From a virus (lineage: Duplodnaviria; Heunggongvirae; Uroviricota; Caudoviricetes): a stretch of 8,059 nt of DNA. The stretch covers positions 1 to 8,059 of the IMG/VR virus record IMGVR_UViG_2529292735_000021, one strand, 5' to 3'. The translations under genes were made by a program, and so were the position numbers. Below are positions 4,089 through 5,450 of this stretch, piece after piece. The notes under the pieces are model-generated. The model had not been told where the DNA came from. It worked only from the letters and a program-made list of their open reading frames with translations, and made no database searches. Each line of letters opens with the position of its first letter. Within the stretch, counting starts at the first letter, position 1.

Positions 4089-5243
4089 TTAATCAAGTTT
4101 TTGCTGATGATACCGATACAGCATCATTCTAAGTTTTAGCAAGGTTGTACTATCATTATCTGCAGAGCAAAAATTATACCAACCCTCAGTATATTTATTT
4201 AAAGTATCAAAGTAATAATCCTTCAATGGATCATCCCTATCTGAGTGGAGACAAGAAAACATCTTCTGAAGAACATAATTTAATTCACCTGTAGGAAGCC
4301 TCGAAATAATCACATCACAAGTAGTTGTTAAATCTTCAATATTCATTTTCTGAAGATTATTTCTAATCTCTAAAACGATCGGATAGAGTTTACTCAAAAA
4401 CTCATTTACTTCATCTTGAAGATGCTTCTCTTTAACACAACCATCAAACAAATGAATTAACTCTTCCAATTGCATTCGGTAATAATCATTATTACCTCGT
4501 ATAGCGACTTCTGAAAGAAGCATCCTCAACTCATCATAAATGTTATCGGTGGATGATATAACTTGCGCGGACAAAACATCGTAATGGTTGTTACGAATTA
4601 CCACTATAGAGTCCATCAGTTTTTCTAGATATTTATACCTACTTTCAACATATGAGATAAGCTCGTTAAATTTAATACCGAAAATAATATCATCCACACC
4701 GGGTTTGTTATTATAAAGACTTATAGTAAAATCATTATTATTAAGTGCATAAAAATGAGGCCAGCTCGCAAACAATCTCTCCCCGTGGTTATTTTTAAGA
4801 TTCGTAGGGTGAGCACCAAAAATAGCGCGAATACTCTTAAAATAAGAGTCATTATCCTCATGAGAAAGATAATGTATTTTATCCTTAAAAATATCAACAG
4901 AGCCTTTAAAAGGCCATTTCATAAAATTATTGTCAGTTTCAATAATACGATGGAGTTGCCGCACCGCTTCCACTATTATATCGATTGATGATATAATAGT
5001 ATAAATCTGCATAGCTTTAATATCAATGTCTTCAGATATTTCAGGGATGTTCATAAGATAGCGTATAGAAACAGTAATCCAATCCATGCATGAACAAATA
5101 GGGCTGAACTGATTTTTACCATTTCTGTTTATGAAGTAACTATAAACAAAATCTCTTTCATTAACTACATCGCGAAAATCCGTTATTAAAGTATCATTAA
5201 TAGTTATACCAAAATTTGTCTTAGTTATCTTCATAGTGACCAT
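4089..5243 (-). CDS. Hypothetical protein, 384-386 codons, AT-rich horizontally acquired cargo between phage D and ogr; candidate anti-phage defense/abortive-infection protein of unknown family
   Basis: Long uninterrupted ORF in sequence of about 30% GC (hand count on sample lines) flanked by about 55-60% GC phage DNA; opposite strand to both neighbours; stop TAA at 4089-4091. Start is ambiguous: GTG 5249, ATG 5243 or ATG 5234, none with a strong SD. No P-loop, nucleotidyltransferase or other signature seen by eye; one R-x5-H string (RAIFGAH). Confidence 0.7.
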   Translation of the reverse strand: MVTMKITKTNFGITINDTLITDFRDVVNERDFVYSYFINRNGKNQFSPICSCMDWITVSIRYLMNIPEISEDIDIKAMQIYTIISSIDIIVEAVRQLHRIIETDNNFMKWPFKGSVDIFKDKIHYLSHEDNDSYFKSIRAIFGAHPTNLKNNHGERLFASWPHFYALNNNDFTISLYNNKPGVDDIIFGIKFNELISYVESRYKYLEKLMDSIVVIRNNHYDVLSAQVISSTDNIYDELRMLLSEVAIRGNNDYYRMQLEELIHLFDGCVKEKHLQDEVNEFLSKLYPIVLEIRNNLQKMNIEDLTTTCDVIISRLPTGELNYVLQKMFSCLHSDRDDPLKDYYFDTLNKYTEGWYNFCSADNDSTTLLKLRMMLYRYHQQKLD

Positions 5244-5450
5244 TTTCACATCAACATTCTCATAGAGAGTAGATTTTTACCGTTATCATATATAAACACA
5301 AGTCATCTGGTTATCCGAATCACTATATTTAAAGCAATTAGGTTTAAACATGCACTCCTGCGCTAACTTTTTGCTCAAGGCGGAGTGGCTGTTGGAGTCT
5401 GAGCCAGTACAACTTAAAATAGAACCAGCACCACGTTAAGGGAGGTCGCT

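Follow-up and report, generated by a model that had tools for sequence, protein, structure and literature searches.

The window, by which we mean the whole 8,059-nt stretch of phage DNA analysed in this study, contains a low-GC open reading frame (the cargo ORF) between the P2-like genes gpD and ogr (Table 1). The cargo ORF is convergent with gpD and divergent from ogr, and its length ranges from 381 to 386 codons depending on the start chosen; in database homologs, translation starts either from the ATG at 5243, giving 384 aa, or from 5234, giving 381 aa, and the true start is likely one of these two. GC content is 0.319 in the cargo ORF (GC3 of 0.289) versus 0.53 in gpD and 0.48 in ogr, the whole gap between the two flanking genes has a GC content of 0.336, and the composition profile falls to 0.31–0.34 over positions 4050–5400. 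The first-pass annotation had described an ORF of 385–386 codons and about 30% GC on the opposite strand between D and ogr, in agreement with the 386 aa, 31.9% GC and minus strand found here. Its figure of 55–60% GC for the flanks was too high (53% in D and 48% in ogr as measured), and the A/T homopolymers thought to make this ORF the most indel-prone proved to be nine runs of five, with no A/T run of six or longer.

The cargo ORF is a real coding gene under purifying selection, because it has many homologs (a word-indexed search gave 132, and the protein family comprises 663 representative clusters at 50% identity) and a dN/dS of 0.13 when compared with the phage phi458 allele, which is 71% identical. 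Against 98%-identical alleles, dN/dS is 0.24–0.34.

Table 1. Features of the gpD–ogr region, in window coordinates.
Feature	Position	Strand	Description or basis
gpD (late control D / VgrG-like tail gene), left flank	2854..3958	plus	tblastn against the intact 366-aa D protein
gpD frameshift	near 3575-3582	plus	indels relative to intact relatives
Inserted low-GC cassette	3946..5366	.	without counterpart in relatives having other or no cargo
Hairpin	3974..4012	.	15-bp arms, 9-nt loop; repeat search; between the convergent stops of D and the cargo ORF
Cargo ORF	4089..5249	minus	386 aa counted from GTG at 5249; ORF list
Stop codon TAA of the cargo ORF	4089-4091	minus	
Variable C-terminal helical domain, residues 231-384	4092..4553	minus	AlphaFold2 model and conservation
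Conserved N-terminal domain, residues 1-230	4554..5243	minus	helical bundle and three-stranded sheet (AlphaFold2 model)
RAIFGAH, R-x5-H motif (R139...H145), residues 139-145	4809..4829	minus	
Codon 131, AAT (Asn)	4851..4853	minus	Asp in all 124 other aligned homologs; GAT in SE11
Right-end boundary motif GTTGGAGTCTGAGC..CAACTTAGAAT	5387..5422	plus	kept in cassettes with unrelated cargo
ogr (Ogr/Delta zinc-finger late activator), right flank	5451..5711	plus	intact

A blastn alignment to a related prophage carrying another cargo (L016) ends at 3945 and restarts at 5367. The DNA from 5367 on matches related prophages with other cargo, its final ~40 nt before ogr also match the empty site, and the stretch from 5367 to ogr is the upstream region of ogr itself; positions 5250–5366 are the sole part of 5250–5450 that belongs to the inserted cassette. 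A 200-bp control region (5250–5450) had been proposed to couple expression of the cargo gene to ogr. We rejected such a shared promoter, since no match to the sigma-70 consensus was found in 5250–5450 and half of this region is conserved upstream DNA of ogr. In other cassettes, the right-end boundary motif is paired with an inverted left-end copy; the left copy is absent in the window. The hairpin downstream of the cargo ORF is terminator-like but lacks a T-run, and a terminator scan returned nothing meeting its criteria near the cargo ORF, that is, no canonical terminator. An Rfam scan returned three tRNAs and nothing else.

A variable slot between gpD and ogr

The 4.5 kb around the cargo gene were compared with 5426 complete E. 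coli genomes, of which 1654 match; the cargo gene is present in 20 of these 1654. In an occupancy sample drawn evenly from the match ranking, 38 rows span both flanks, and in about 25 of these 38 related prophages the slot is empty, the span leaving no room for cargo; at the empty site of JJ1886, 40 nt separate the D stop from the ogr ATG. Occupied rows contain one gene each, in a gap of 1.0–2.2 kb with a GC content of 0.34–0.43. At least nine alternative single-gene cargos were identified in the slot, namely a GmrSD-domain protein (527 aa; L085), two PIN-domain proteins (500 aa in L016 and 356 aa in L091), a ParA-family protein (352 aa; L084), a YecA/SEC-C protein (379 aa; L086), and hypothetical proteins of 221 aa (L087), 340 aa (L090), 452 aa (L089), and 465 aa (L088).

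The cargo ORF is thus a horizontally acquired, moron-type single-gene cargo in a swappable slot of a P2-like prophage. A moron or cargo insertion was also the view of the first-pass annotation, and it is borne out by a slot that is mostly empty in relatives, by the at least nine other single genes found there, and by the contrast in base composition; the survey of the D–ogr gap that it had suggested revealed variable cargo across related E. coli prophages. Because the slot is variable and the gene occurs in 20 of the 1654 genomes, it is not a conserved P2 function, and the case considered earlier, in which the same gene is kept at this position in most P2-like phages, does not apply.

Similar to the P2 exclusion morons old, tin, and fun(Z) and to the cargo of P2/P4 hotspots, the cargo gene is a low-GC single gene between conserved P2-like genes (PMC9122126; 10.64898/2026.02.27.708500), and, again as with these morons, occupancy varies and otherwise similar prophages have exchanged their cargo. 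The published P2 hotspots are gpA–gpQ (old/tin) and the tail-fibre region (fun) (PMC9122126); different from these, the cargo gene sits between D and ogr. Minor hotspots inside late genes and near att have been described in a 2026 preprint (bioRxiv 10.64898/2026.02.27.708500), and the iLund4u preprint reports a "third hotspot between a tail protein and CI" of P2 phages and characterises P2 hotspots as mixed-purpose (10.1101/2024.10.15.618418). The D–ogr slot may correspond to this third hotspot, and the D–ogr hotspot itself is probably not new. Unlike P2/P4 hotspot cargo that is recognised by PADLOC, the cargo protein offers no such sequence similarity. The GmrSD-domain cargo is suggestive of a defence hotspot, a status that stays a candidate one because the nine alternative cargos are mostly unrecognised by PADLOC, none of them being convincingly identified.

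The cargo protein family

Searches of the window protein against Pfam, PADLOC, PHROGs, and NCBIfam returned nothing below E = 0.07, PADLOC-DB v2.0.0 had no family matching the window protein or any of four divergent homologs at E ≤ 10, and Pfam at E ≤ 5 gave only scattered chance matches across 125 family members. Weak matches to DUF5816 (9 of 125 members) and to CTD4 of ABC-3C systems (one member) were treated as noise. A sequence-profile search of the PDB produced one chance match (HA2, E = 0.09), and comparison with solved folds revealed no similarity above noise for the cargo protein. Homologs are all named "hypothetical protein" in the databases, and the literature, searched by accession numbers and by phage phi458, yielded nothing on what the cargo gene does. 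The statement of the first-pass annotation that no family could be recognised therefore holds for the window protein and for divergent members alike, as does its statement that a P-loop is absent (no G-x4-GK[ST] motif in the cargo protein). The cargo protein belongs to a large, uncharacterised, and widely scattered family.

Conservation was assessed in an alignment of 125 sequences, down to 21% identity, with residues numbered on the 384-aa form. AlphaFold2 produced models of the full-length protein (pLDDT 89.5, pTM 0.81) and of residues 1–230 (pLDDT 93.3, pTM 0.90). The N-terminal domain consists of a long-helix bundle followed by a three-stranded sheet and then two helices; it holds nearly all invariant polar residues (S51, D54, D88, D131, R139, H145, and S160), whereas conserved residues are few in the C-terminal domain (L242, R249, Q298, and Y323), and median identity to homologs is 35.6% in the N-terminal versus 21.2% in the C-terminal domain. 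Block 131–162 is the most conserved stretch. Residue 145 is His in 125/125 sequences and residue 131 is Asp in 124/125, the window copy being the sole exception; R139 is conserved in 122/125, D88 and S160 in 120/125 each, and D54 in 118/125. Residues conserved in at least 90% are Arg139, Asp54, Asp88, Ser51, Ser160, Trp55, Trp161, Arg249, and Tyr323. A zinc site at CSCMDW was considered and dropped, as Cys52 is Ala in 58/125 and Ser in 16/125 sequences. This pattern of conservation suggests an enzyme with a catalytic N-terminal domain and a diversifying C-terminal domain.

Members of the family are patchily spread over Gammaproteobacteria, Campylobacterota, Spirochaetes, Firmicutes, Tenericutes, and other groups, and were identified in Enterobacterales, Vibrionales, Alteromonadales, Psychrobacter, Marinomonas, and relatives of Arcobacter, and also in Sphaerochaeta, Clostridia, Bacilli, Tenericutes, Lentisphaerae, and Kiritimatiellae. 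The family was found on 5 of 2.9 million IMG/VR viral contigs and is therefore not typically phage-borne. Pfam and PADLOC searches of 110 immediate neighbours from about 60 loci identified 127 Pfam families, none in more than three loci, and no conserved partner gene; the family is always solitary. The commonest immediate neighbour (3/110) is the YhcG/DUF1016 nuclease, PADLOC candidate PDC-S02. Similar to this PD-(D/E)xK family, the cargo family consists of genes that stand alone in defence islands and R-M operons; different from it, the cargo family is absent from PADLOC-DB v2.0.0, and the two are unrelated in sequence and fold.

The family recurs in mobile-element and defence contexts, an association that is qualitative. 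Homologs lie in or adjoin type I R-M operons at L005/L006, L039, L066, L077, L080, and L098: the order is hsdS-FRG-hsdR-GmrSD-x-[homolog] in L098, and type I R-M (hsd) genes occur within the locus in L039, L066, L077, and L080. In Paraclostridium, the arrangement is hsdM-hsdS-[homolog]-hsdR with 11- and 19-nt spacers. Another homolog (L003) is carried by an SXT/R391-type ICE between traN and an endonuclease I/ssb/recT/yqaJ block, and this ICE allele is >90% identical across Edwardsiella, Vibrio, Pasteurella, Proteus, and Shewanella. Further contexts include an island with resolvases, an AAA_13 ATPase, and Mrr in Klebsiella, a prophage end between a tape-measure gene and a large serine recombinase (integrase) in Pantoea, a position beside the Pin invertase in phage phi458, and an island with a NERD/UvrD helicase in Vibrio. 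A minority of homologs are found among housekeeping genes.

Three members (P0073, P0084, and P0087) have an N-terminal fusion of about 245 aa, for which no match was found in Pfam, NCBIfam, PADLOC, or PDB. The fused domain forms a solitary dark family of >2600 proteins, which in Thiothrix sits among AIPR, ApeA-like, PIN/Phd, and PemK genes. One further member (P0237) is fused at its C terminus to DUF6577, on which no literature was found. Split or truncated homologs occur at no fewer than six loci away from contig ends and, together with the D131N and R249P alleles described below, would represent the turnover typical of defence genes.

The window allele and candidate functions

The window copy differs from its relatives at a site that is otherwise invariant. 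Asp131 (GAT) is present in the E. coli SE11 allele at NC_011415 1962291–1963445, in E. fergusonii, and in all other cluster members examined except P0393, a short-contig entry that shares the Asn131 allele. D131N is one of four amino-acid changes specific to the window lineage, and the chance of four changes striking one of two invariant sites is about 0.02; a near-identical allele (L017) carries R249P at another conserved residue. The tail genes FI, FII, and D each carry one frameshift relative to intact relatives, while the cargo ORF, ogr, and hok are unframeshifted. The first-pass annotation had noted the cargo ORF as the only long ORF free of frameshifts, which is correct as to FI, FII, and D, but the observation carries little significance: given three frameshifts in 2.8 kb, the probability of none in 1.16 kb is about 0.3. 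"Intact despite homopolymers" was for this reason, and for want of long A/T runs, rejected as evidence of selection. The gene is intact in the sense that its reading frame is open, but not in the sense of an unaltered protein, given the Asn at position 131.

Because of D131N and of the prophage with its three frameshifted tail genes, the window copy may be inactive. These same features suggest either relaxed constraint in a decaying prophage or selection against a costly gene. Whatever the family does, it is quite possible, although somewhat short of an even chance, that the window copy is a dead relic whose frame has been kept by chance in a decaying prophage: Asp is retained in 124/124 other aligned homologs, including 98%-identical alleles, so small a set of window-specific changes would rarely include this site, each of three tail genes has lost its frame, and a stretch of 1.16 kb would stay free of frameshifts in about 30% of cases. 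However, the ORF and its upstream region are intact, as are ogr and hok, Asp130 and Asp132 adjoin the changed residue and might compensate, and the Asn allele in P0393 indicates that it has persisted in a lineage.

For the family itself, we put the probability at roughly 0.5 that the cargo gene encodes a protein acting alone against phages, by superinfection exclusion or abortive infection, with a conserved catalytic N-terminal domain and a variable C-terminal domain. Invariant His145 and Asp131 and near-invariant Arg139, Asp54, Asp88, and Ser160 would form a catalytic pocket in the N-terminal domain, the enzyme would be expected to hydrolyse nucleic acid or nucleotides, perhaps with the help of a metal, as the clustered acidic residues hint, and the fast-evolving C-terminal helical domain might act as a sensor or regulator; we infer the defence function, the catalysis, the substrate, and the roles of both domains. 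Points counted in favour are the cargo slot, the rarity of the gene, the size of the family, the lack of a partner, the R-M and mobile contexts, conservation, selection, and turnover. Counted against it are the lack of similarity to known defence proteins or solved folds, the mostly unrecognised alternative cargos of the slot, the housekeeping neighbours, and the scarcity on viral contigs. We regard the cargo family as a sound candidate, backed by its contexts, for a new single-gene anti-phage family at a site of a kind already known.

The first-pass annotation had pointed to RAIFGAH as fitting the HEPN R-x4-6-H pattern. The motif is indeed present and conserved (His in all 125 sequences, Arg in 122), so the refuting case named there, in which these residues vary among homologs, does not apply, but HEPN membership of the cargo protein is not supported. 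HEPN and anticodon-nuclease genes (PrrC/RloC/AbiD-F) are known to sit inside type I R-M operons, and some homologs are likewise placed between hsdS and hsdR or beside hsd genes; as in PrrC/RloC and AbiD/AbiF-type proteins, an Arg and a His are conserved, here at R-x5-H spacing, and the N-terminal domain is modelled as an up-down helical bundle. We did not file the protein as HEPN because no profile matched, Ala or Ser follows the Arg, the motif is placed C-terminally in its helix, and Asp residues are conserved. No HEPN-clan or Abi profile matched the window protein (Pfam, NCBIfam) or, unlike AbiD/AbiF-type HEPN proteins, any of the 125 members (Pfam, E ≤ 5), and structure comparison with the HEPN superfamily gave scores at noise level. 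In canonical HEPN domains, the motif opens the last core helix at its N terminus, and the Arg is usually followed by a polar residue (N, D, or H). In the cargo family, by contrast, residue 140 is Ala in 109/125 and Ser in 12/125 sequences (121/125 together), and in both AlphaFold2 models Arg139 occupies the last turn of the short helix 131–142/144, with His145 just past its end. The extra near-invariant residues, three Asp and a Ser, are also unlike the HEPN superfamily and suggest a more complex, possibly metal-dependent site instead. RNase activity of some kind is possible, but it is rather improbable that the cargo protein is a HEPN RNase toxin cleaving tRNA or mRNA on infection through a metal-independent R-x5-H site in the manner of AbiD/F, RnlA, or PrrC. 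Unlike PrrC/RloC, moreover, it has no P-loop and no ABC-ATPase or ATPase Pfam match, and unlike R-M-embedded genes, the window copy has no adjacent R-M system, the linkage being found in homologs only.

An accessory role outside defence, such as anti-restriction counter-defence, a host-fitness or virulence factor, or a regulator on mobile elements, is unlikely, yet it merits consideration: mobile-element slots carry mixed functions, as reported for P2 by iLund4u (10.1101/2024.10.15.618418), the D–ogr slot also holds ParA- and YecA-like cargo that is not obviously defensive, and some homologs have housekeeping surroundings. A gene placed between hsdS and hsdR with 11–19-nt spacers is, however, hard to square with anti-restriction, and adjacency to R-M, GmrSD, Mrr, AAA_13, and NERD genes is repeated. 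Counter-defence genes are usually phage-borne, whereas this family is rare in viral contigs. In favour of a toxin of a toxin–antitoxin or addiction module that stabilises its element are that the gene is borne by mobile elements, that the changes at invariant residues in near-identical alleles resemble escape from toxicity, and that a hok/gef gene lies nearby. Such a toxin is nevertheless very unlikely here, given that about 380 aa is large for a classical toxin and that, unlike type II toxin–antitoxin modules, the family has no conserved small neighbour or adjacent partner among the 110 flanking proteins of about 60 loci.

A more far-reaching version of the anti-phage reading would join a new class of single-protein immune effector to the D–ogr slot as an undescribed system of defence-gene cassettes, and we regard this combination as doubtful. 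Its effector half would have an all-new His/Arg and tri-Asp pocket in a helical bundle with a small sheet, coupled to a diversifying sensor domain. Its slot half would be a dedicated exchange of promoter-bearing single-gene cassettes mobilised in trans, with cassette ends made of ~30-nt inverted repeats and a duplicated CAACTTAGA core.

Implications

The cargo gene is one of many candidates proposed from context, well defined and promising rather than surprising; because many such candidates exist, we do not rank it highest for surprise. The D–ogr slot looks little-mined for candidates, with nine other cargos that are mostly unrecognised by PADLOC. The cargo gene is cheap to test, as it is a single 1.15-kb gene with natural Asp131 and Asn131 alleles as a built-in control. 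Should the family prove not to be defensive, it would remain well defined and worth a Pfam entry. If it is defensive, the homologs inside type I R-M operons would provide a new protein in which to test a PrrC-like "guard of restriction" mechanism, and the family, without a known domain or solved structural relative, would constitute a widespread, unannotated single-gene system of 663 clusters at 50% identity in several phyla.

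Ends and contents of the D-ogr cassettes

D-ogr cassettes whose cargo genes are unrelated, namely those of the window and of loci L085 and L086, have boundary sequences in common (Table). The cassette ends are imperfect inverted repeats of approximately 30 nt, the left one containing TGCATTAGCTCAGAC and the right one GTCTGAGCTAGTA. These repeats are flanked by CAACTTAGA, which occurs as a single copy in the empty site, and judged from the sequence this arrangement resembles a target-site duplication; no recombinase is present inside the D-ogr cassettes. In the window cassette, the right end alone has been retained, and the final ~8 codons of D also differ.

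Table. Coordinates of cassette boundaries, frameshifts and the ORF adjacent to the prophage
Feature	Locus	Position	Strand	Remark
Boundary sequence, right end	window	5387-5422
Boundary sequences	L085	2473-2503 and 4585-4615
Boundary sequences	L086	2462-2490 and 4215-4243
Slot boundary region	L102	2464-2503
Frameshift in FII	window	~1068-1084		one, versus intact relatives
Frameshift in FI	window	~2589		one, versus intact relatives
Frameshift in D	window	~3575-3582		one, versus intact relatives
Low-GC (~39%) ORF	window	6234-6629	minus	between prophage end and tRNA-Leu

Prophage state and neighboring genes

The prophage in the window is decaying (957-3958; frameshifts in the Table). Over the pgsA flank, the window shares at most 98.9% identity with any complete E. 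coli genome, and its origin may therefore be Shigella or a different Escherichia lineage. The genes FI-FII-E-T-U and D are collinear in phage P2. In the window (1-3958), the FI-FII-E-T-U tail block lies on the strand opposite to D, and FI and D are therefore divergent. E. coli SE11 and the other relatives share this layout (window and L001 5219-12059), and alongside it they carry a recombinase of the invertase type as well as tail-fibre assembly genes in duplicate.

An intact gene of the Hok/Gef toxin family (MSQKSLTAITFCVTVILIIWMLHGSLCEIRMSFWGAEFAAFLQCKQ) is located 3′ of ogr within the prophage end (~5901-6041, plus strand). A Sok-type RNA was not among the Rfam matches, and the window ceases to resemble the SE11 prophage at ~6162. 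The low-GC ORF beyond this point, annotated as "hypothetical protein" in E. coli genomes, probably starts at an internal Met, from which a signal-peptide-like segment (MRCGLLMAICFCLVSFSGYAATGK...) extends; its C-terminal half is Cys-rich.

Locus L017 (NZ_JBQPOM010000071.1), labelled Vagococcus sp. WN89Y, includes 6.2 kb of DNA that shares 96.5% identity with the enterobacterial P2-like prophage of the window; contamination or mislabelling of the assembly is the probable cause. The cargo gene in L017 carries a change at a near-invariant residue, R249P.

Fusion partners and alternative cargos

The N-terminal domain fused to three family members (residues 1-245 of P0073, P0084 and P0087) is part of another large dark family, which comprises >2600 proteins of ~240-255 aa each and has >50 invariant residues including GDxND...DPDNG...YQHF; the domain had no match in Pfam, NCBIfam, PADLOC or PDB. 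In Thiothrix, a copy of this partner family (L082 6001-6705) shares its island with genes for AIPR, ApeA_NTD1, PIN/Phd and PemK. In one branch of the cargo family, the Lentisphaerae-type (P0237, 609 aa; L068 7313-9142), DUF6577 is fused at the C-terminus; no literature on DUF6577 was found.

Nine other single-gene cargos occupy the D-ogr slot (L016, L084-L091), encoding two PIN-domain proteins, GmrSD-, ParA- and YecA-type proteins and four hypothetical proteins. Searches of PADLOC-DB v2 with these nine returned no match or weak partial matches only, and the D-ogr slot may thus be a little-mined source of candidates.
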